Below are positions 1-54,530 of a stretch of 64,000 nucleotides of DNA, piece by piece. The notes under the pieces are model-generated. The model had not been told where the DNA came from. It saw nothing but the letters and a program-made list of their open reading frames with translations, and searched no databases. A program made the translations under genes and the position numbers. The DNA lies in assembly GCF_055900595.2 (NCBI RefSeq), contig NZ_CM148325.1. One strand, 5' to 3'. The stretch's first letter is position 1; every line of letters starts with the position of its first letter.

Positions 1-675
1 AGCGATATCCTCATGGATATCGAAATTGACCACGCAGACCAGACCGAAGAGAGCGATATATCCTTCCTGACCCGCATGGCTGAAATGCTGGGTGCGATTG
101 CCACCGTAAAAAACGGCAGCCTGTTATTCATTCTGCCGGGTGGCGGAACCGGGCCGGACGGAAGAGCCCTGCCTTCGTTCGCCATTACCCGCAGCAGCGG
201 CGACAGTCACCGCTTTCGCATTGCTGACCGTGATGCGTATACGGGGGTCCGGGCGCACTGGCTCGATCTGAAGTTCGGGCAAAAGAAAAAAGTGAACGTG
301 AAGCGACGCAGGGAAGCCGGGAAACAGAAACAGGAGAAGAGCAGCAGCCGGGAAGGTGATTACATGGAGGGCGCGGAAGGGAACGTCTACGTTCTGCGCA
401 GGACTTACCAGAATGAAGAAACCGCACGACGTGCAGCAGCTGCAAAGTGGCAGGAACTACAGCGGGGCGCGGCATCATTCTCCATCACGCTGGCGCGCGG
501 TCGTGCCGACCTGTACCCTGAAATGCACGGCAGGGTAACAGGTTTTAAAAGCGAGGTGGACAATCAGGACTGGATTATTGCCAGGGTGGAGCACAGCATA
601 GATGAAAGCGGCTTCACCACACAACTGGAGCTGGAAGCGAAAATCCCCGAATGGATAGCAGATTCAGGCGGATAA
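1..675 (+). CDS. P2-like phage late control protein D (gpD), C-terminal part; ORF is open at window start so 5' end lies upstream
   Basis: Translation recognised as gpD-like tail/late protein; frame open from position 1; followed 44 bp later by an ogr-like gene as in P2 gene order D-ogr-att. Confidence 0.75.
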   Translation, partial: SDILMDIEIDHADQTEESDISFLTRMAEMLGAIATVKNGSLLFILPGGGTGPDGRALPSFAITRSSGDSHRFRIADRDAYTGVRAHWLDLKFGQKKKVNVKRRREAGKQKQEKSSSREGDYMEGAEGNVYVLRRTYQNEETARRAAAAKWQELQRGAASFSITLARGRADLYPEMHGRVTGFKSEVDNQDWIIARVEHSIDESGFTTQLELEAKIPEWIADSGG

Positions 676-718
676 AATTAAAATGAGCCATCTCCACTCA
701 GCCAGATAAGGAGAAGCC

Positions 719-970
719 ATGTTCCGTTGTCCCCTGTGCGGTGCATCCGCACGTATCCGCACCAGTCGCAATGAAAATGATTCAGGCACAGTTCGCCTGA
801 AGTACTACCAGTGCAATAACCTCGAATGCGGGATCGGCTTTACCACACTGGAGGGTTTTAACAAATTCACATCAAAACGCGCCCCGTCGCCGCAGGGTAC
901 AGAGCGGATACCGTGGGAAGATTTTCCGGGATCTCACAGGGGGAATGCTCAGATGAATCTTGATATTTAA
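719..970 (+). CDS. ogr: Ogr/Delta-family zinc-finger late transcription activator (P2-like phage)
   Basis: 83 aa, Cys4 motif C-x2-C-x24-C-x4-C (CPLC...CNNLEC), AAGGAG RBS 7 nt upstream of ATG, position immediately after gpD. Confidence 0.8.
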   Translation: MFRCPLCGASARIRTSRNENDSGTVRLKYYQCNNLECGIGFTTLEGFNKFTSKRAPSPQGTERIPWEDFPGSHRGNAQMNLDI

Positions 971-980
971 GAACAATAAT

Positions 981-1114
981 CAGGTTGAGAGGACATCATA
1001 AGGCAAGTAGATTAACGGCAGATACTTTCCCGCAACCACGGGCAAGTATTTAATTATCCATGATGAAATATGACCTAAATTGTTTTTTGCCCGCCGGAAA
1101 GCGGGCATTTTTTT
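981..1114 (+). repeat. Partial copy (U0) of a repeated unit, ending in terminator hairpin T0; candidate phage attR / 3' end of an sRNA-like gene
   Basis: Shares ggttgag, agtagattaac, attatccatgat and the terminator with the units at 1626-1783 and 1828-1987. Confidence 0.5.
1088..1114 (+). terminator. Intrinsic terminator-like hairpin T0 (tgcccgc-cggaaa-gcgggca + T7)
   Basis: 7-bp GC stem, 6-nt loop, 7 consecutive T; identical to T1. Confidence 0.7.
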
Positions 1115-1328
1115 ATTCTTTTGTGGTTATGGGGTCATCAGGAACCACGTGCAGATTATATTTTTGTTTTTTTGGCGTTCCTCCGGCAGCAACGAGTTCA
1201 TCAATAAGACACTGACACGCCTGAACATCCCGGGCATGTCTTAGTTTCACCTTTATTGATTTAACCTTATCCTCACCGGAGGAGAAATGCAGTTCAATCT
1301 CAATATCGTTTCTTCGGAACAATCTCAT
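1113..1328 (-). CDS. Hypothetical small protein (71 aa), orphan ORF between repeat copies
   Basis: ORF with G-rich RBS-like tract (caggggggcgt) directly upstream of ATG; no family recognised; stop codon abuts T0. Confidence 0.35.
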   Translation of the reverse strand: MRLFRRNDIEIELHFSSGEDKVKSIKVKLRHARDVQACQCLIDELVAAGGTPKKQKYNLHVVPDDPITTKE

Positions 1329-1554
1329 ACGCCCCCCTGAACATATCAGAAATGCTAGTATCGAAAAATGAGAAAACAGTTAGACAGGAGAAACATATTA
1401 ACACAAATCATTTATACCTATAGATGAAATTATAATTTCATTCATGAATATGATAGATAACTATATTGTGAACAAAATGAAAAATGGCTAAATTAAAAAT
1501 GGGCATGGAGGAATGCCTCGTAATCAGTAATACATGATCCATACTTCCTTGTTT

Positions 1555-1581
1555 TGCCCGCCGGAAAGCGGGCATTTTTTT
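1555..1581 (+). terminator. Intrinsic terminator-like hairpin T1 (identical to T0)
   Basis: Same stem-loop and T7 run as T0; preceded by conserved catgat motif. Confidence 0.7.
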
Positions 1582-1625
1582 GGCGGTTACCATCGCCTCA
1601 CCTTCCTGGTTCACACAAAGCAACC

Positions 1626-1783
1626 CTGATTTTCCATGAAAACTTCAGGGTTGAGCCAAAAGCACAAAGACAGTAGATTAACCAAGGGTACCCGCCACCT
1701 GCCAACAGGAACGGTATCCAGTACGTATTAATGACTGACAATTCACATTGCTGTTTTGCCCGCCAGAAGGTGGGCATTTTTTT
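1626..1783 (+). repeat. Repeat unit A (about 158 bp) ending in terminator T2; candidate sRNA-like gene copy
   Basis: About 85 percent identical to unit B over the first 75 nt; ends in hairpin gcccgcc-agaa-ggtgggc (one G.U pair) + T7 at 1757-1783. Confidence 0.55.
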
Positions 1784-1827
1784 GGCAGTTATCATGGACG
1801 CACCTTCATGACACATATTAAGCAGAC

Positions 1828-1987
1828 CTGATTTTTCCATGAAAAATTCATGGTTGAGACAAAAGCACAAAAACAGTAGATTAACCACGGGTGCCTGCCA
1901 CCTGACAACAGGAAGGGGTGTCCATTATCCATGATATACAAACGAAAAGTCTTGTCTTTTGCCCGCCGTTGCGCGGGCTTTTTTTTT
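1828..1987 (+). repeat. Repeat unit B (about 160 bp) ending in terminator T3; candidate sRNA-like gene copy
   Basis: Homologous to unit A and to U0; ends in hairpin gcccgc-cgttgc-gcgggc + T9 at 1961-1987. Confidence 0.55.
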
Positions 1988-2016
1988 GCCACCCTCACCA
2001 GTGAGGGTACCATCAT

Positions 2017-2238
2017 TCAGAGGCGCGTAAGCCACCCGGCGTTAACATCCTGCCCGTCAACCCTGACCGCAGAGTCTGAACGGCAGGCACCGGAAGCAGT
2101 ACCAAAAACACCTCTGACAAGTTCCGCCACCTTCCCGATATCATCAGGCGCCACATTCCTCACCTCGACAGCGATCCGTGGCGTACCATCATCGTTAACA
2201 AGCGTGGCTTTAAGGCTGGTACGACGGGCAAATAACAT
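2017..2238 (-). CDS. Hypothetical protein (73 aa, MLFARRTSLKATLVNDDGTPRIAVEV...)
   Basis: ORF with GGAGG-type Shine-Dalgarno (gggaggggg) 8 nt upstream of ATG, balanced amino-acid composition; family not recognised. Confidence 0.4.
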   Translation of the reverse strand: MLFARRTSLKATLVNDDGTPRIAVEVRNVAPDDIGKVAELVRGVFGTASGACRSDSAVRVDGQDVNAGWLTRL

Positions 2239-2294
2239 CAACACCCCCTCCCTTCGGTTCGTTGCACTGGCAGCACGATACCACCAGGAAAAAG

Positions 2295-2329
2295 AAAAGC
2301 CCACAACGTCAGGATTGCGGGCTTTTTTT
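2295..2329 (+). terminator. Hairpin T4 with A-tract upstream and T7 downstream (bidirectional terminator-like)
   Basis: aaaagccc...gggcttttttt about 70 bp upstream of copA -35. Confidence 0.5.
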
Positions 2330-2394
2330 CTTCAAAAATGGACACTACGTGGACACTGATTAAATAATCCTTTCTTAATCAGACTGTTAAAATG

Positions 2395-2431
2395 CTTGAC
2401 CTTCCCCTTGCTGGAAGGTTTAACCTTTAAC
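2395..2431 (+). promoter_or_regulatory. copA promoter with CueR (MerR-family) operator dyad ccttcc-N7-ggaagg between -35 and -10
   Basis: Sequence cttgaccttccccttgctggaaggtttaacc recognised as the copA/CueR box; AAGGAG RBS at 2454-2459. Confidence 0.85.
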
Positions 2432-2465
2432 ACAGTCAGTCAACACTGTCTTAAAGGAGTACGTT

Positions 2466-4970
2466 ATGTCACAAACTATCGACCTGACCCTGGACGGCCT
2501 GTCCTGCGGTCACTGCGTTAAACGCGTGAAAGAAAGTCTCGAACAGCGCCCGGATGTTGAGCAGGCGGATGTGTCTATCACTGAAGCGCACGTTACCGGT
2601 ACTGCCAGTGCAGAACAGCTGATCGAAACCATCAAACAAGCGGGTTATGACGCATCTGTAAGCCACCCAAAGGCTAAACCGCTGGCGGAGTCATCAATCC
2701 CGTCGGAAGCACTGACAGCGGTTTCTGAGGCGCTTCCGGCAGCAAACGCCGATGACGATGACAGTCAGCAGTTGCTGCTGAGCGGCATGAGCTGCGCCAG
2801 CTGTGTTACCCGCGTACAAAATGCGCTGCAAAGCGTACCGGGCGTCACTCAGGCACGGGTAAACCTGGCGGAGCGTACTGCGCTGGTGATGGGCAGTGCC
2901 TCCCCACAAGATTTAGTGCAGGCAGTGGAAAAAGCGGGCTACGGCGCGGAAGCGATTGAAGATGACGCTAAACGCCGCGAGCGCCAGCAGGAAACCGCCG
3001 TCGCTACCATGAAGCGCTTCCGCTGGCAGGCAATTGTCGCTCTGGCGGTAGGTATCCCGGTGATGGTCTGGGGGATGATCGGCGATAACATGATGGTCAC
3101 CGCCGACAACCGCAGTCTGTGGTTAGTTATCGGCCTGATAACGCTGGCGGTAATGGTTTTCGCCGGCGGGCATTTTTACCGTAGCGCATGGAAAAGCCTG
3201 CTGAACGGTGCGGCGACAATGGATACGCTGGTGGCGCTGGGTACTGGCGTGGCGTGGCTCTATTCAATGAGCGTCAACCTGTGGCCGCAGTGGTTCCCGA
3301 TGGAAGCGCGACATCTTTATTACGAAGCCAGTGCGATGATTATCGGTCTGATTAATCTCGGTCATATGCTGGAAGCGCGCGCACGTCAGCGTTCTTCAAA
3401 GGCGCTGGAGAAATTACTCGATTTAACCCCGCCGACGGCGCGCCTGGTCACTGACGAAGGTGAAAAAAGCGTGCCGCTGGCAGATGTTCAGCCTGGTATG
3501 TTACTACGCCTGACGACCGGCGATCGCGTACCGGTAGATGGTGAAATTACCCAGGGCGAAGCGTGGCTGGATGAAGCAATGCTGACGGGCGAACCTATTC
3601 CGCAGCAAAAAGGCGAAGGCGATAGCGTTCATGCAGGTACCGTGGTGCAGGACGGTAGCGTGCTGTTTCGTGCCAGTGCGGTTGGCAGCCATACTACGCT
3701 GTCACGGATCATTCGTATGGTGCGCCAGGCCCAGAGCAGTAAACCGGAAATCGGCCAGTTGGCGGATAAAATCTCTGCCGTATTTGTGCCGGTAGTGGTG
3801 GTGATTGCGCTGGTCAGTGCGGCAATCTGGTACTTCTTTGGTCCGGCACCGCAAATTGTTTATACCCTGGTGATTGCCACTACGGTACTGATTATCGCCT
3901 GCCCGTGTGCGCTGGGGCTGGCAACGCCAATGTCGATTATTTCCGGCGTCGGGCGTGCGGCTGAATTTGGCGTGCTGGTGCGGGACGCCGACGCGCTGCA
4001 GCGCGCCAGTACGCTCGACACCGTAGTGTTCGATAAAACCGGGACGCTGACCGAAGGGAAGCCGCAGGTTGTCGCAGTAAAAACATTTGCTGATGTTGAT
4101 GAAGCGCAAGCATTGCGTCTGGCGGCGGCACTGGAACAAGGTTCCAGCCATCCGCTGGCACGGGCGATCCTCGATAAAGCAGGCGATATGCAGCTGCCGC
4201 AGGTCAACAGCTTCCGTACATTGCGTGGGCTGGGCGTGAGCGGTGAAGCAGAAGGTCATGCGTTATTGCTGGGTAATCAGGCGTTGTTAAATGACCAGCA
4301 AGTCGATACTAAAGCGATTGAAGCAGATATTTCAGCCCAGGCATCGCAAGGGGCAACGCCTGTGCTGCTGGCGGTTGACGGGAAAGCGGTGGCCTTGCTG
4401 GCGGTGCGCGATCCGTTGCGTAACGATAGTGTGGCGGCACTGCAACGTCTGCATAAAGCGGGATATCGTCTGGTGATGCTAACCGGGGATAACCCGACCA
4501 CCGCCAATGCGATCGCCAAAGAAGCAGGGATTGATGAGGTGATAGCCGGCGTGCTGCCAGACGGTAAAGCCGAAGCGATCAAACGTCTGCAAAGTGAAGG
4601 ACGTCAGGTGGCAATGGTGGGCGACGGCATTAACGACGCGCCAGCGCTGGCTCAGGCGGATGTCGGTATTGCTATGGGTGGCGGCAGCGATGTTGCCATT
4701 GAAACCGCGGCGATTACCCTGATGCGCCATAGCCTGATGGGTGTTGCGGATGCGCTCGCAATTTCCCGCGCAACGCTGCGCAACATGAAGCAGAACCTGC
4801 TCGGTGCGTTTATCTACAACAGCATTGGTATTCCGGTCGCCGCCGGTATTTTGTGGCCGTTCACGGGAACACTGCTTAACCCGGTGGTTGCCGGAGCGGC
4901 AATGGCGCTCTCGTCGATTACCGTAGTGAGTAACGCCAACCGGTTGCTGCGGTTTAAACCGAAGGAATAA
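2466..4970 (+). CDS. copA: Cu(I)-translocating P-type ATPase
   Basis: 834 aa; two N-terminal GxxCxxC metal-binding domains, CPC motif, DKTGT phosphorylation site. Confidence 0.97.
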
Positions 4971-5165
4971 GTATGTCATTGCGGATGCGCTGCTTTAGGG
5001 TGGCGCATCTGGCATCGACGCATGCCTGCCGGATGCGGCGATGTTTTGGCCTTACGCGACCTTTTTGCACGTTTTCCCCGGCGTGCCAAATATTTAATCC
5101 GTCCCAACTCCATTTGCGCCATCCCTCACCGCGCGCTAGCATGATATTTCACAAAGGGAGGTCGT

Positions 5166-5960
5166 ATGGATCTGTTGTACCGGGTAAAAACGCTTTGGGC
5201 CGCGCTGTGCGGTAATCATTACACCTGGCCTGCTATCGATATCTCTCTTCCCGACCATCGCCATTTTCATCTAATCGGCAGTATTCATATGGGTAGCCAC
5301 GATATGGCTCCCCTGCCCACCCGTTTGCTCAAAAAGCTCAAAAACGCCGATGCGCTGATCGTCGAGGCGGATGTTTCTACCAGCGATACGCCTTTTGCCA
5401 ATTTGCCTGCCTGCGAGGCGCTGGAAGAGCGCATTAGCGAGGAGCAACTCCAAAACCTGCAGCACATTAGCCAGGAGATGGGCATTTCTCCGTCGCTCTT
5501 TTCTACCCAACCGCTGTGGCAAATCGCGATGGTTCTTCAGGCAACGCAAGCGCAAAAACTGGGGCTGCGGGCAGAATATGGTATCGATTACCAGCTATTG
5601 CAGGTGGCGAAGCAACAACATAAACCCGTGATTGAACTGGAAGGGGCAGAAAACCAGATTGCCATGTTGCTCCAGCTCCCTGACAAAGGACTGGCGCTGC
5701 TGGACGATACGCTGACCCACTGGCACACCAACGCTCGTTTGCTGCAACAAATGATGAGTTGGTGGCTGAATGCACCACCGCAAAATAATGAAATAACGCT
5801 GCCCAATACGTTCAGTCAGTCGCTGTACGATGTGTTGATGCATCAGCGAAATCTCGCCTGGCGGGACAAATTACGCGCTATGCCGCCGGGGCGCTATGTG
5901 GTCGCGGTCGGTGCACTACACCTGTATGGAGAAGGGAATTTGCCACAAATGTTGCGCTAA
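5166..5960 (+). CDS. ybaP: TraB-family protein YbaP
   Basis: 264 aa, recognised as YbaP; GGAGG RBS. Confidence 0.9.
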   Translation: MDLLYRVKTLWAALCGNHYTWPAIDISLPDHRHFHLIGSIHMGSHDMAPLPTRLLKKLKNADALIVEADVSTSDTPFANLPACEALEERISEEQLQNLQHISQEMGISPSLFSTQPLWQIAMVLQATQAQKLGLRAEYGIDYQLLQVAKQQHKPVIELEGAENQIAMLLQLPDKGLALLDDTLTHWHTNARLLQQMMSWWLNAPPQNNEITLPNTFSQSLYDVLMHQRNLAWRDKLRAMPPGRYVVAVGALHLYGEGNLPQMLR

Positions 5961-6042
5961 AAAAATGGCCAATATCGCTATTGGCCCGTCAAAGAGGAAT
6001 TTCATTTTTTTATTATTATGCCGTCACTTTAAGCGACGGTGT
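5959..6042 (-). ncRNA. chiX: ChiX (SroB/MicM) Hfq-dependent small RNA
   Basis: Reverse complement matches remembered ChiX sequence ACACCGTCGCTTAAAGTGACGGC...GGCCAATAGCGATATTGGCCATTTTTTT; 3' end overlaps ybaP stop codon. Confidence 0.9.
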
Positions 6043-6679: not shown

Positions 6680-8332
6680 TTACTGCCAGCTCACCTCACC
6701 TTTCGGTTCATAGACACTCACATCCAGCGGCGAGTTTTTCTGGATATACGCTTTCAGCACTTCAGCATCAATAAAGCCGGTATTCACATAGCCCGGTTTG
6801 TTATCCAGACGCGGATAGCCATCACCGCCAGTGGCATTGAAGTTTAATGTCGCCATACGGTAAGTTTTCGCCGGATCGACCGGTTCGCCTTTGATTTTCA
6901 GGTCGTTCAGTTTGCCGTCTTTCGCCACAAAGCTAACGTTGGCAAATTGCGGATAGGCACCAGAATCAGGCTTCATTTGTGCGACGGCGGTCAGGTAATC
7001 AATCACCTCTTTACCGGTCATGTCGGCATACACCACCACATTGCCGAATGGCTGCACTTTCAGCACATTTTTATAGCTGATATCACCTGTTTCGATAGAA
7101 TCACGAATTCCGCCTCCGCTCATCACCGCAAAGTCGGCACCAGTGCGATCCATTTGTGCTGCCAGAATCAACCGCCCCATATTGGTCTGTACAAAACGCA
7201 CTTTGCTGCGGTCGCCTTCCAGACGACCATTGGTTTCGCCTATTTTCACTTCCAGCTGCGCTTTGCCTTTGTTCTGGAACGGTGATAACAGCGAAATCAT
7301 TTGCTGGTTTTCGGCGATTTCAGGGGTGTAAAGCACACGCTCGCTTTTCCCGTCTTCCCAGGTCACTTTCTTCTTCAGGTTTACCGGAATCAACTGGTAG
7401 TTGACCATTTTCATTTCGCCGTTGCGAAACTCAAAGTCGGCCCGACCAACGTACTTGCCCCACTCATGCGCTTGTACAATCCAGATGCCATTTTGTTGAT
7501 CCGGTTTGCATGGCGTACCAGGAACGTAATCGACCTGTTTTTTATTTTCTGCCGCCATACAGACTGGATCTTGCGAGTGACCTCCGACGATCATCGCCAG
7601 CGATCCGGCAGGCAGCGCGCGTGCCATCTCCACATCGCCCGCTGCATTAGAGCCGTGCTCACCATTGTCGTAATGCCCCATATGGGTTGCCGCGATAATA
7701 ATGTCTGGCTTTTCTGTCTGTTGCAGCTCCTGAATCACCAGCTTCGCTTTATCAGCGGGCTTACGAAATTCGATATCAGTGAAGTATTCCGGGTTACCAA
7801 TTTTGGCTGTGTCATCGGTTGTCAGCCCAATAACGGCAATTTTCAGATCCTGACGCTTAAACAGCGCCCATGGTTTAAACAGGCGCTCACCAGTGCTTTT
7901 TTGGTAGATATTGGCGGAAAGCAACGGGAACTTAGCCCACTTTTCCTGCTGGCGTAATACGGTGAGCGGGTTATCAAATTCATGATTACCGATCGCCATT
8001 GCATCATAGCCCACCAGATTCATACCTCGAAAATCAGGTTCGGCATCCTGTAAGTCGGACTCGGGCACGCCAGTATTAATGTCGCCACCGGAAAGTAGCA
8101 GCACGCTACCACCTTCAGCCGCAACCTCTTTGCGAATACCGTCCACCAGCGTTTTTTGCGCCGCCAGACCATATTCGCCATATTCATTACGCCAGAAATG
8201 ACCATGATGATCATTGGTATGCAGAACTGTAATTTTGTAGGTTTTATCCTGCTCATAAGCCAGAGCAGTTTCACTCGCCAGTGTAAATGTGGTTAACAGT
8301 GCTAACGCCACGCCCCGCTGCAATAATTTCAT
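6680..8332 (-). CDS. ushA: UDP-sugar hydrolase / 5'-nucleotidase (periplasmic)
   Basis: 550 aa with signal peptide, metallophosphatase motifs. Confidence 0.95.
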   Translation of the reverse strand: MKLLQRGVALALLTTFTLASETALAYEQDKTYKITVLHTNDHHGHFWRNEYGEYGLAAQKTLVDGIRKEVAAEGGSVLLLSGGDINTGVPESDLQDAEPDFRGMNLVGYDAMAIGNHEFDNPLTVLRQQEKWAKFPLLSANIYQKSTGERLFKPWALFKRQDLKIAVIGLTTDDTAKIGNPEYFTDIEFRKPADKAKLVIQELQQTEKPDIIIAATHMGHYDNGEHGSNAAGDVEMARALPAGSLAMIVGGHSQDPVCMAAENKKQVDYVPGTPCKPDQQNGIWIVQAHEWGKYVGRADFEFRNGEMKMVNYQLIPVNLKKKVTWEDGKSERVLYTPEIAENQQMISLLSPFQNKGKAQLEVKIGETNGRLEGDRSKVRFVQTNMGRLILAAQMDRTGADFAVMSGGGIRDSIETGDISYKNVLKVQPFGNVVVYADMTGKEVIDYLTAVAQMKPDSGAYPQFANVSFVAKDGKLNDLKIKGEPVDPAKTYRMATLNFNATGGDGYPRLDNKPGYVNTGFIDAEVLKAYIQKNSPLDVSVYEPKGEVSWQ

Positions 8333-19194: not shown

Positions 19195-21126
19195 TCAAAT
19201 GGGGCGGATACTTTCTTCATCCAGCTCCGCATCGAAGAATCGACGCAGGGTCTGAATATTATTATCCGCAATAATGGACTCGCGCGCCTGCGCAAGTTTT
19301 TCTTCGTATATCGCCTGACGCCATTCCAGCGGCGTGCGCACCGCGGGATTATCATCTTCAACGATAGTCAGTTCAACCGTTGAACCTTTTAACGTGCTCA
19401 ACGCTTCAGCCAGTTTTTGCTGTGCACCGCGGTTGTTTAAATGCCGCTGAGAGGAGCGCAAATGCAGACATACTGCGTTGTCGCTCTCCTCTTTCCAAGC
19501 ATTTAACGCCACCTGTTCGACCAGTTTTGGTAGCGAAAGTTGGCTCACCTGTGCCGCCCAAGGATCGCGGTCAATGGCTTCTGCCGCCAGCTTTGCCGCC
19601 AGTTCCGGCGTTTTTTCATGTTCCAGCGCTTTTTTCAGCGCCTTCGGCGTGGCGACCACCTCTTTTTGCTGCATCACTGGAGTGGTAGCCTTCCAGCGAT
19701 ACGCTTCTTTTTTGGCTGGTGCTTTTTCCAGCGCCGATGGCCCCGGACGCGCCTGAACGCGATCGGTGACCGAAGCCAGTCTTTCCAGCGCAGCGTTATT
19801 CACCGGCCGCGCGCGGGTAGCGGCTGCCGGTTCACTCTTTTTTGCTTTGGTTGCTCCCTGTGCGCGCTGCAGTTGTTGGCGCGCTGCCAGCACCTGGCTG
19901 GTGGTTTCTGAGAGCGGTACAGTCGGTGCCTGCTGCGGTGCTGATTGCGGTTGCGGCGGCACCTGGGTTGGCGTCATTACTGCCGTTGGCGCGACGGGCG
20001 CAAAAGACTGGCGTGGCACTTCTGGCTCAGGCAGCGGCATACGCGGATGAAACGCCAGTGCGCGCAACAGTGTCATCTCAACGCCCATGCGGCGGTCCGG
20101 CGCATACGGTAATTCTTTGCGACCAATCAACAGCGTTTGATAGTAAAGCTGAATATCCGTCGGCGGTATGGTGCGCGCCAGTTCACGCATCCGCAGCTCG
20201 ATGGCGGCCATGTCGTTGCCCAGCGCAGCAGGGGAAAGTTGCACCATTGCAATGCGGTGCAACAGGCCGAGCATTTCTACCAGCAACGCTTCCCACTCAA
20301 TACCACGAGCGGCGGCTTCATTAATCAGCGACATTACACGCTCGCCGTTGGCTTCAACCATCGCTTCAACCAGCGACAGCGCCTGATCGTCGTCAAGCGT
20401 ACCCAGCATCGCACTGACCGCCTGGGTTGAAACCTGGCCGTCACCGCTGGCAATTGCCTGGTCGGTTAAACTTAGGGCATCTCGCAAGCTGCCTTCAGCG
20501 GCGCGCGCCAGCAGTTGCAGCGCCCGCGGCTCGTGAGCGATATGTTCTTCGTTGAGGATGTGCTCAAGCTGATGGCGAATTTGCTCGACATCCAGCGCCT
20601 TGAGATGAAATTGCAGGCAGCGTGACAAAATCGTCACCGGCAATTTCTGCGGATCGGTCGTCGCCAGCAGAAACTTGACGTGCTCCGGCGGTTCTTCAAG
20701 GGTTTTTAACAGTGCGTTAAAGCTGTGGCGCGACAGCATATGCACTTCGTCGATCAGATAAACTTTAAAACGACCACGCGCTGGCGCGTACTGGACGTTA
20801 TCCAGCAGGTCGCGGGTATCTTCGACTTTGGTGCGCGAGGCGGCGTCGATTTCAATCAGATCGACAAAGCGCCCCTGCTCAATTTCACGACAGTTATCGC
20901 ACACGCCGCACGGCGTCGCGGTAATGCCGGTTTCGCAGTTTAGCCCCTTCGCCAGCAGTCGGGCGATAGAGGTTTTTCCGACGCCACGGGTGCCGGAAAA
21001 AAGATAAGCATGATGAATACGCCCTAACGACAAGCCGTTCGCCAGTGCGGTCAGCACATGTTCCTGGCCGACGACGTCAGCAAAGGTTTGTGGGCGCCAT
21101 TTTCGGGCTAAGACCTGATAACTCAT
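19195..21126 (-). CDS. dnaX: DNA polymerase III tau subunit (gamma produced by programmed -1 frameshift)
   Basis: 643 aa, AAA+ Walker motifs; slippery heptamer A AAA AAG at 19837-19843 (minus strand). Confidence 0.97.
   Translation of the reverse strand: MSYQVLARKWRPQTFADVVGQEHVLTALANGLSLGRIHHAYLFSGTRGVGKTSIARLLAKGLNCETGITATPCGVCDNCREIEQGRFVDLIEIDAASRTKVEDTRDLLDNVQYAPARGRFKVYLIDEVHMLSRHSFNALLKTLEEPPEHVKFLLATTDPQKLPVTILSRCLQFHLKALDVEQIRHQLEHILNEEHIAHEPRALQLLARAAEGSLRDALSLTDQAIASGDGQVSTQAVSAMLGTLDDDQALSLVEAMVEANGERVMSLINEAAARGIEWEALLVEMLGLLHRIAMVQLSPAALGNDMAAIELRMRELARTIPPTDIQLYYQTLLIGRKELPYAPDRRMGVEMTLLRALAFHPRMPLPEPEVPRQSFAPVAPTAVMTPTQVPPQPQSAPQQAPTVPLSETTSQVLAARQQLQRAQGATKAKKSEPAAATRARPVNNAALERLASVTDRVQARPGPSALEKAPAKKEAYRWKATTPVMQQKEVVATPKALKKALEHEKTPELAAKLAAEAIDRDPWAAQVSQLSLPKLVEQVALNAWKEESDNAVCLHLRSSQRHLNNRGAQQKLAEALSTLKGSTVELTIVEDDNPAVRTPLEWRQAIYEEKLAQARESIIADNNIQTLRRFFDAELDEESIRPI
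19837..19843 (-). other. dnaX: dnaX programmed -1 ribosomal frameshift slippery site (A AAA AAG)
   Basis: Plus-strand cttttttg; protein context ...ATKAKK SEPAAATRARP matches the known gamma C-terminus region. Confidence 0.85.
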
Positions 21127-36657: not shown

Positions 36658-36771
36658 GGGTGGGGGCCCTGCCAGCTACATCCCGGCACACGCGTCATCT
36701 GCCTTGGCTGCTTCCTTCCGGACCTGACCTGGTAAACAGAGTAGCGTTGCGGGAGAACCAACAGAGCCCCC
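36658..36771 (-). ncRNA. ffs: 4.5S RNA (signal recognition particle RNA)
   Basis: 114 nt; reverse complement matches GGGGGCTCTGTTGGTTCTCCCGCAACGC...GGGCCCCCACCC. Confidence 0.95.
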
Positions 36772-54343: not shown

Positions 54344-54450
54344 AGAGCTCTCTCTTAGTTTAATTTCCGCCAGGTAATCAGATGACACGACTGTGCTTCA
54401 CGCCATCTATTAACATGTACGTCAGTATATGGGGATGTTTCCCCCACATT
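54344..54450 (-). promoter_or_regulatory. lon heat-shock promoter region, uninterrupted
   Basis: Recognised leader ...CCCCATATACTGACGTACATGTTAATAGATGGCGTGAAGCACAGTCGTGTCATCTGATTACCTGGCGGAAATTAAACTAAGAGAGAGCTCT ATG. Confidence 0.6.
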
Positions 54451-54530
54451 CAACGCCGAGAATAGAGGAAAAATTAAAGGGGAGATAAAATCCCCCCTTT
54501 TTGGTTAACTAATTGTATGGGAATGGTTAA

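Follow-up and report, generated by a model that had tools for sequence, protein, structure and literature searches.

The 64,000-nucleotide stretch of DNA analysed here (the window; contig NZ_CM148325.1 of assembly GCF_055900595.2) very probably begins inside a prophage of the P2 family that entered the promoter of the host gene copA. At its left edge is the 3' part of gene D (P2-family tail/late-control; 1–675, + strand, frame 1, 224 codons), the start of which lies to the left of the window. The encoded protein matches phrog_12925 (7e-93) and phrog_52 (2e-90) in the PHROGs profiles, an identical protein is labelled "phage late control D family protein" in RefSeq, and its 363-aa homologues bear PF05954 (Phage_GPD). 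The next gene, ogr (719–970, +), encodes an Ogr/Delta-type zinc-finger late-gene activator of 83 amino acids (PF04606 Ogr_Delta, 7.8e-14; phrog_603, 4e-14) that also matches NF007241 at 3e-10, a score under the curated cut-off of that model. A preliminary description of this DNA had already read these two genes as part of gpD and an Ogr-type activator in P2 order. Between ogr and copA there are 1.4 kb of lower G+C content, with four terminators of the same sense, three repeated units of about 135 bp and two small open reading frames (ORFs) on the minus strand. The order gpD (1–675), ogr (719–970), attR core (2395–2414) is that of the right end of P2, and the host neighbour to the right is copA (2466–4970, +, 834 aa; ORF and annotation).

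The attR core is a 20-bp sequence, CTTGACCTTCCCCTTGCTGG, found once in K-12 and once at each end of the prophage. It was defined by comparing attB of K-12 with the left junction in the genome CS5L and the right junction in the window (2395–2414, +); alignment to K-12 and other E. coli, suggested earlier as the means of placing the junction, locates it to the base. The stretch covered by the preliminary description, 1–2394, stops one base short of this core. The core falls inside the copA promoter (2396–2426, +), which has the composition of a CueR-type promoter: a −35 element TTGACC (2396–2401), a 19-bp spacer with the CueR box CCTTCC-N7-GGAAGG (2400–2418), and a −10 element TAACCT (2421–2426). 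The same sequence is present in the K-12 PcopA fragment; the CueR-binding fragment of this promoter has been given as TTGACCTTCCCCTTGCTGGAAGGTTTA (PMC9004249), and the CueR box has been placed within the 19-bp spacer (PMC8169799). The core starts one base ahead of the −35 element, takes in the whole left CueR half-site (CCTTCC) and the 7-bp centre, and stops once it has included the first GG of the half-site on the right, so that the promoter is phage-borne up to 2414. The hybrid promoter at attR is identical to the native one through 2429. In these comparisons the −35 element and half of the CueR operator are present in the phage as an exact copy, so that the core promoter is rebuilt at the junction. 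The preliminary description had the prophage ending about 1.4 kb from the promoter, at a junction directly upstream of it. The phage genes do end at that distance, but the phage DNA runs on to the core and the junction is actually inside the promoter.

In K-12, glsA lies 261 bp to the left of the copA promoter and is divergent from it, in agreement with the preliminary description. When 600 bp of K-12 with the glsA-copA intergenic region in the middle were used as a query, 5422 complete E. coli genomes gave a match and 5402 of them had the sequence unbroken, hence gpD and ogr are not native to this locus in most strains. The junction in window positions 1–2460 was found in five complete E. coli genomes, with 99.6–99.8% identity. 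Between the window and one of these five genomes, CS5L, there are 2 mismatches in 1–2429 (99.9% identity in the phage part) and about 5% from 2430, which is 16 nt past the core. This pattern argues that the mobile DNA ends at the core and that the same phage is present in different hosts. GCA_027274655.1 has 3 nucleotide differences from the window in 14,970, at positions 164, 1342 and 7750; since the window also differs from CS5L at 164 and 1342, these two are private variants or sequencing errors of the window assembly. In GCA_027274655.1 the gene for the identical integrase adjoins glsA, and the two copies of the 20-bp core, the one at attR and a second one further left, are 34,635 bp apart. 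Uninfected strains of the window's own host background (AP025754.1, CP098223.1) have a single core copy, and their flanks differ by 1 nt in 2556 from the window on the copA side and by 1 nt in 3000 from the attL flank on the glsA side. Two cores in GCA_027274655.1 and one in the near-identical uninfected background indicate that the insertion was precise, B-O-B' becoming B-O-[phage]-O-B'.

The left part of the prophage was read in the near-identical genomes CS5L and GCA_027274655.1, not in the window's own sequence. In CS5L, the DNA between glsA and copA encodes an integrase, repressor, replication protein A, portal, terminase, capsid, lysis, baseplate, tail fibre, sheath and tube proteins, tape measure, U, D and Ogr. 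The complete set of P2-type modules – an early region of int-repressor-cox type, replication gene A, the Q-P/O-N-M-L head genes, lysis, baseplate V-W-J-I, fibres H-G, and tail FI-FII-E-T-U – is present in these relatives, by annotation in CS5L and by Pfam families in GCA_027274655.1. In the early region of the CS5L prophage, the place that an annotated Cox-family gene holds in a sibling phage at serS is taken by a 172-aa ORF. The five genomes with the same junction, the full set between glsA and copA in CS5L and the int gene beside glsA in GCA_027274655.1 bear out the proposal that this is an island junction and that the body of the prophage lies to its left, and the relatives carry far more than the two phage genes seen in the window. 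An integrase had been expected in that body, and is there; cargo such as defence genes had been suggested as well, and here the result differs. The cargo hotspot between A and Q in CS5L has toxin/antitoxin-like pairs (RelE/ParE with an HTH protein; DUF6516/TumE with a regulator), and no PADLOC defence system was found among the eight cargo proteins of the CS5L prophage, those of the A-Q hotspot included, which gave generic HTH matches only.

The tape-measure gene of this phage lineage (L001 13538–17095, −, equivalent to DNA left of the window) is called incomplete by RefSeq/PGAP, which leaves 1.7 kb without annotation, but a single intact ORF of 1185 amino acids spans the region. P2 gpT has about 815 amino acids, and a tape measure of 1185 is unusually long beside it.

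Both arms of the attachment site have the features expected of a P2-type integrase. In the P arm there are two direct TGGACA repeats, 2339–2344 and 2350–2355 (+), 11 bp apart, and the same pair is present in the P' arm at attL (CS5L, L002 15492–15508). They fit the published arm consensus of P2-type Int proteins, tgTGGaCa (PMC3448106), and the P-arm repeats are kept in two other P2-like elements at the copA site and in the serS-type phage. A match to the integration host factor (IHF) consensus, AATCAGACTGTTA (WATCARNNNNTTR), forms a putative IHF site between the arm sites and the core (2377–2389, +), and a second match is in the P' arm (CS5L, L002 15437–15449). The prophage integrase has the Pfam domains Int_N and Phage_integrase, so that a tyrosine recombinase, paired direct arm repeats on both sides, and a core common to attB are all found together. 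A G+C-rich hairpin between an A-run and a T-run, terminator-like on both strands (2295–2326; found by a terminator scan of the minus strand), lies between the phage genes and copA. On the plus strand it aligns to the terminator part of the Rfam Thr-leader model; it is kept in the serS-type sibling, and it would insulate copA from phage transcription.

The arrangement suggests how the phage would have entered. The attP core would be a 20-bp copy of the host's copA −35 element, left CueR half-site, 7-bp centre and two bases of the right half-site. Int and IHF would act at the arm and IHF sites, and the crossover would lie in the 7-bp centre of the CueR box, CCTTGCT. At attR, the phage P arm and the phage-borne −35 element and half operator are joined to the host's right half-site, −10 element and copA. 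At attL, the host −35 element and half operator are fused to the phage P' arm and int, which leaves a dead promoter beside glsA; in the sequence of attL, the host −35 element and half-site run into phage DNA (GGACAAAGAACTG...) without a second half-site or a −10 element.

The same site has been occupied more than once. The exact Int protein adjoins glsA in 10 of the 10 contexts listed, in at least three host backgrounds, and the index places it in 1108 blocks of the assembly collection. About 15 more genomes have other P2-like elements or remnants at the copA site, with a similar P arm. In one of these lineages, in H1827/12, the Int is 82% identical and the left junction ends again at ...CTTGCTGG, so the core boundary is the same for both Int lineages. 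Degraded P2-like remnants cut by IS1 or IS4 are found at the copA site in other strains.

Sibling phages of this lineage are inserted elsewhere. Those at ihfA are 99.8–99.9% identical over gpD, ogr and the repeated units and carry hicAB; those at the serS terminator are about 90% identical over the same region and carry hok. The serS-type sibling keeps its homology to the window as far as the arm repeats, with the last small ORF and the hairpin included, and departs from it no more than about 35 bp ahead of the core. As its core it has AAAAGCGCCCGCAGG, in which the left half and the loop/centre of the serS terminator, a palindrome of the host, can be recognised. The Int of this sibling shares 50% identity with the copA-type Int and is closest to it at the N-terminus and in the catalytic domain. 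The same lineage with a different core and Int indicates that the phage changes site by swapping the core together with the core-binding part of Int, with a host palindrome as target both times. In this retargeting, about 55 bp (spacer and core) are exchanged along with the core-binding part of Int, whose N-terminal and catalytic parts are kept, as are the arm sites. Between ogr and attR, the serS-type sibling (L005 6500–8800) also has an internal P-arm-like remnant (TGTGGTCA..TGGACA near 7350–7370), followed by a truncated copy of a 71-aa ORF and more units, and looks like two stacked phage right ends.

The interval between ogr and the core holds three candidate small-RNA genes. Unit U0 (983–1114, +) has a promoter TTGAGA-N17-TAGATT at 985–1013 and a predicted transcript of about 95 nt at 1020–1114, both from promoter and terminator scans; the predicted fold has a hairpin at the 5' end, then an A/U-rich single strand, then a U-tailed terminator (fold z = −3.4). 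Unit U1 (1649–1783, +; promoter 1651–1679, predicted transcript about 1686–1783) and unit U2 (1852–1987, +; promoter 1854–1882, predicted transcript about 1889–1987) emerged from repeat, promoter/terminator and fold scans. All three share TTGAG(A/C)-N17-TAGATT, the 5' hairpin, the A/U-rich single strand, a U-rich stretch and the terminator with its U-tail. A truncated unit (1526–1581, +; repeat and terminator scans) has the 3' half, with a terminator identical to that of U0, and lacks the conserved promoter; there are partial nhmmer matches at the corresponding place in relatives. Two small orphan ORFs on the minus strand complete the interval. The first, of 71 amino acids (1113–1328; WP_001236182.1, annotated in relatives), is kept in all phages of the lineage. 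It matches only the C-terminal half of phrog_14142 (function unknown, 5e-12), and upstream of it in frame there are stop codons only. The second, of 73 amino acids (2017–2238; WP_029490443.1, annotated in CS5L), is the last gene before attR and has an 84%-identical full-length homologue at the same place beside attR in the serS-type sibling. Neither ORF gave anything usable in Pfam, NCBIfam, PHROGs or PADLOC, and BLASTP lent no support to reading the second as a short HicB or as a paralogue of the first.

Taken together, window positions 1–2414 are very probably the right end (gpD, ogr, accessory interval, P arm and attR core) of a P2-family prophage of about 34.6 kb (Peduoviridae, related to P88 and Xuanwuvirus) that entered the copA promoter by Int-mediated site-specific recombination. 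Several observations weigh against this. The completeness of the prophage in the window's strain rests on near-identical genomes, with the left part outside the window, and the copA site is seldom taken: of 5422 complete genomes, about 20 have an element there. A search for the attP junction as reconstructed, GTTAAAATG-core-GGACAAAG, found no exact copy in IMG/VR or JGI metagenome contigs, and no free or circular form was found; a megablast search of window 1–2414 against 50,697 phage records (INPHARED) returned no match, and the best Int match among the isolated phages in INPHARED is 53% identical. The same absences, with the incomplete PGAP call for the tape-measure gene and the IS-cut remnants at this site in other strains, would fit a cryptic, immobile remnant that is inherited only vertically, its junction a fossil rather than a working att site. 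That is distinctly unlikely: CS5L has the full gene set, an intact int and both att arms, the tape-measure ORF is intact, and the phage is 99.9% identical in hosts with copA about 5% apart, with the identical Int beside glsA in different backgrounds. An identical phage in divergent hosts requires recent horizontal spread. Given the missing attP junction and the lack of a matching isolated phage, activity of the phage is only putative. An integrated copy could also have arrived with the glsA-copA region of a lysogen, by transduction or conjugation and homologous recombination, rather than through Int. E. coli recombines often, and as the first host SNP is 16 nt past the core, a breakpoint near the junction is possible from the right side alone. 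However, the breakpoint would have to lie within about 16 nt of the core on that side, the attL flank of the near-identical genome matches uninfected strains on the other, and a second Int lineage has the same core boundary, all of which makes this route very improbable; it concerns only entry into the window's strain, not the nature of the element.

Two further alternatives concern the interval after ogr. In P2 and in most P2-like contigs retrieved, the end of the contig or prophage comes about 340 bp after ogr, and G+C content falls to 33–44% in 1050–1650, so 971–2394 might be host or unrelated island DNA. There is next to no chance of this, because the interval is absent from empty copA sites, where the glsA side adjoins the core. 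It is identical at 99.8–99.9% over 971–1986 in the sibling phages at ihfA and at about 90% in those at serS, with about 90% identity to the serS-type phage continuing over 1987–2360; the part 971–1986 occurs in only 30 of 5426 E. coli genomes, always after ogr, and the interval has the Int arm sites at 2339–2355. By sequence comparison, then, 971–2394 belongs to the prophage and not to the host. Whether the three repeated units in it are genes is a closer matter. They may instead be decayed duplicates of a terminator segment – relics, say, of hok or of stacked right ends – with no transcript of their own, a reading that must be taken seriously although it is somewhat the less probable. U1 and U2 are recent tandem copies, 80–89% identical over a 203-bp repeat, so conservation within them is uninformative. 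Among 7 distinct sequences, 2 of 19 base pairs have double changes and the covariation term is +0.25, about zero; an Rfam search of 1–3000 (E<=1) found no family for the units; and a single weak target lead was obtained. The serS-type phage with its stacked remnants also suits this alternative, as does the promoter and 5' end of hok mRNA, which in relatives (TAAATTACGCGCGGGTGCC, L005 6843–6870) and in P88 (ATAGATTACGCGCGGGTGCC, L125 ~3480–3520) is like that of the units (TAGATTAACCACGGGTGCC, window 1674–1695 and 1877–1898); from this likeness the units may derive from hok-type loci. Against it, the comparison of U0 with U1/U2 shows conserved blocks – the two hexamers of the promoter, always 17 nt apart, a short A/U stretch resembling UAUCCAUGAU, and the U-rich stretch, terminator and U-tail – while the spacer and the body differ, which is the pattern expected of small-RNA genes. 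All three units also fold alike (5' hairpin, single strand, terminator) and all four terminators face the same way. The three units are thus somewhat more probably small-RNA genes.

Scans of the prophage for targets of the three candidate RNAs gave, in the first round, self-antisense matches only and, in the second, one weak lead above shuffled controls. Over 14 nt, two of the pairs being G-U, the single strand of U0 (window 1052–1087) is complementary to the early codons of an ORF of 161 amino acids on the minus strand of the early region of the prophage (L002 ~19544–19557, −); the duplex has −29.3 kcal/mol, and the shuffled minimum is −22.6. Sub-threshold Rfam matches in 1–3000 (Thr/Trp leaders, Hrs1) were set aside as terminator-driven. 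The repeated terminators were also considered as stacked att relics of the copA site, which was dropped since the phage has these terminators at other sites too. The unit hairpins also contain TGGACA, but Int probably does not act there, a single hexamer being expected by chance. An nhmmer search found the units neither in 77 P2-like IMG/VR loci with an Ogr about 72% identical nor in P88.

A difference in copA regulation between lysogens and uninfected strains could follow from this insertion. As the core promoter at attR is base-for-base that of the empty site, copper-inducible, CueR-regulated expression of copA should survive lysogeny. The host sequence upstream of −36 has given way in its entirety to the putative IHF site, the Int arm sites and the terminator hairpin of the phage. 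In empty sites, a perfect CpxR box, GTAAAAGTCCGTAAA (GTAAA-N5-GTAAA), is 20 bp upstream of the copA −35 element (K-12, L003 7471–7485). In lysogens it stays at attL (CS5L, L002 15345–15359), 34.6 kb from copA, and there is none in window 971–2465. Both copA and glsA have been reported to be Cpx-regulated (PMC9600279, PMC11005409), and with the box left at attL and none near attR, lysogens may lose the Cpx input to copA. Lysogens of this kind, which keep the CueR core promoter and lose the CpxR box, are a natural test of what the upstream DNA does, and isogenic pairs could part the CueR input from the Cpx input. On the attL side, int and glsA share a strand and have no more than a weak hairpin between them (GCGTGGTG..CACCACGC, L002 15399–15470), so read-through from the prophage int could enter glsA-ybaT in the sense direction.

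CueR occupies its palindrome in both the apo and the Cu(I) form, and bends and untwists it on activation. A more far-reaching joint reading would have CueR compete with or assist Int, so that integration and excision are gated by CueR occupancy or by copper, with lysogeny rewiring copA and the three units forming a new family of phage small RNAs, specific to this lineage, from the end of the prophage. As a whole, this combination is unlikely on the sequences at hand.

Some features of the host DNA differ between strains as well. In K-12, ybaQ is between copA and ybaP; it is absent from the window (4971–5165), where there are only about 195 bp between copA and ybaP, and other strains have ybaQ or a longer spacer here. 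In the host background with the CopA allele of the window (L100–L108 and L114–L116, outside the window), ybaT is followed by a gene for an outer-membrane efflux protein and one for a repeat adhesin (BapA/Big_13) of about 7,000 amino acids, whereas in K-12 ybaT is directly followed by cueR. Rfam matches at gathering score in the window, at 5959–6042 (−), 19798–19862 (−), 36667–36763 (−) and 54415–54510 (+), belong to the host, as expected: sroB/ChiX, the dnaX frameshift element, SRP RNA and sraA.

Compared to known systems, the element is of an ordinary kind at an unusual site that was not found described. In the literature that could be searched, neither a prophage at copA, its promoter, glsA or ybaS nor a small RNA of a P2-like prophage was found described. 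A 2026 survey of P2 and P4 elements places them at about 30 chromosomal spots in E. coli; its supplements do not name copA, glsA or ybaT, and the copA site may be among these spots, unnamed. The site leaves the view of how P2-like phages work unchanged. It adds to the sites of the P2 family one that is precisely mapped, for which the core and the arms, the empty site, a second lineage of Int beside the first, and a sibling with a swapped core are all at hand, and it lies inside a textbook MerR-type promoter, not in a tRNA gene or terminator.

By its modules, the element fits the structural criteria of a P2-family prophage, and by sequence it appears to fall outside every named genus tested: no megablast match assigns it to Peduovirus or Xuanwuvirus, and its gpD is only about 81% identical in amino acid sequence to that of Xuanwuvirus. 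It has the D-ogr-attR right end and the int-repressor left end of P2, and shares with P2 a pair of direct arm repeats, in agreement with tgTGGaCa, to either side of the core. P2-type integrases direct integration between genes and not into a tRNA gene (PMC3448106), and the copA element does likewise. It differs from P2 in having its own core and attB, the copA promoter, and 1.4 kb of accessory DNA between ogr and attR in place of the 340 bp or so of most P2-like contigs. The closest isolated phages by gpD are Xuanwuvirus P88 (Escherichia phage) and its kind. P88 has about 1.1 kb of accessory DNA between ogr and its genome end, including hok/gef, but it lacks the repeated units, its integrase and att site are different, and it has no DNA match to the window at the megablast level. 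From the siblings at ihfA and serS, the copA element differs in a swap of the last 35 bp or so before the core, the core and Int, and in the cargo beside att, which is hicAB in the first and hok in the second.

The candidate small RNAs are like the Hfq-dependent small RNAs of enterobacteria in predicted architecture only: a sigma-70-like promoter, a length of about 100 nt, a 5' hairpin, an A/U single strand, a U-rich stretch and a terminator with a U-tail. They differ in having no Rfam family and in being restricted to about 30 of 5426 E. coli genomes. Some phages carry in their att core a copy of the end of a host gene, which integration thereby restores, as for phage 21 and e14 in icd and for tRNA-integrating phages such as 186. 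The copA element has in common with these a phage copy of the host sequence that it interrupts, by which function would be kept at one junction. What it restores is the −35 element of a promoter and half of a MerR-type operator rather than the 3' end of a coding or tRNA gene, and it does so without restoring the upstream regulatory DNA, the CpxR box.

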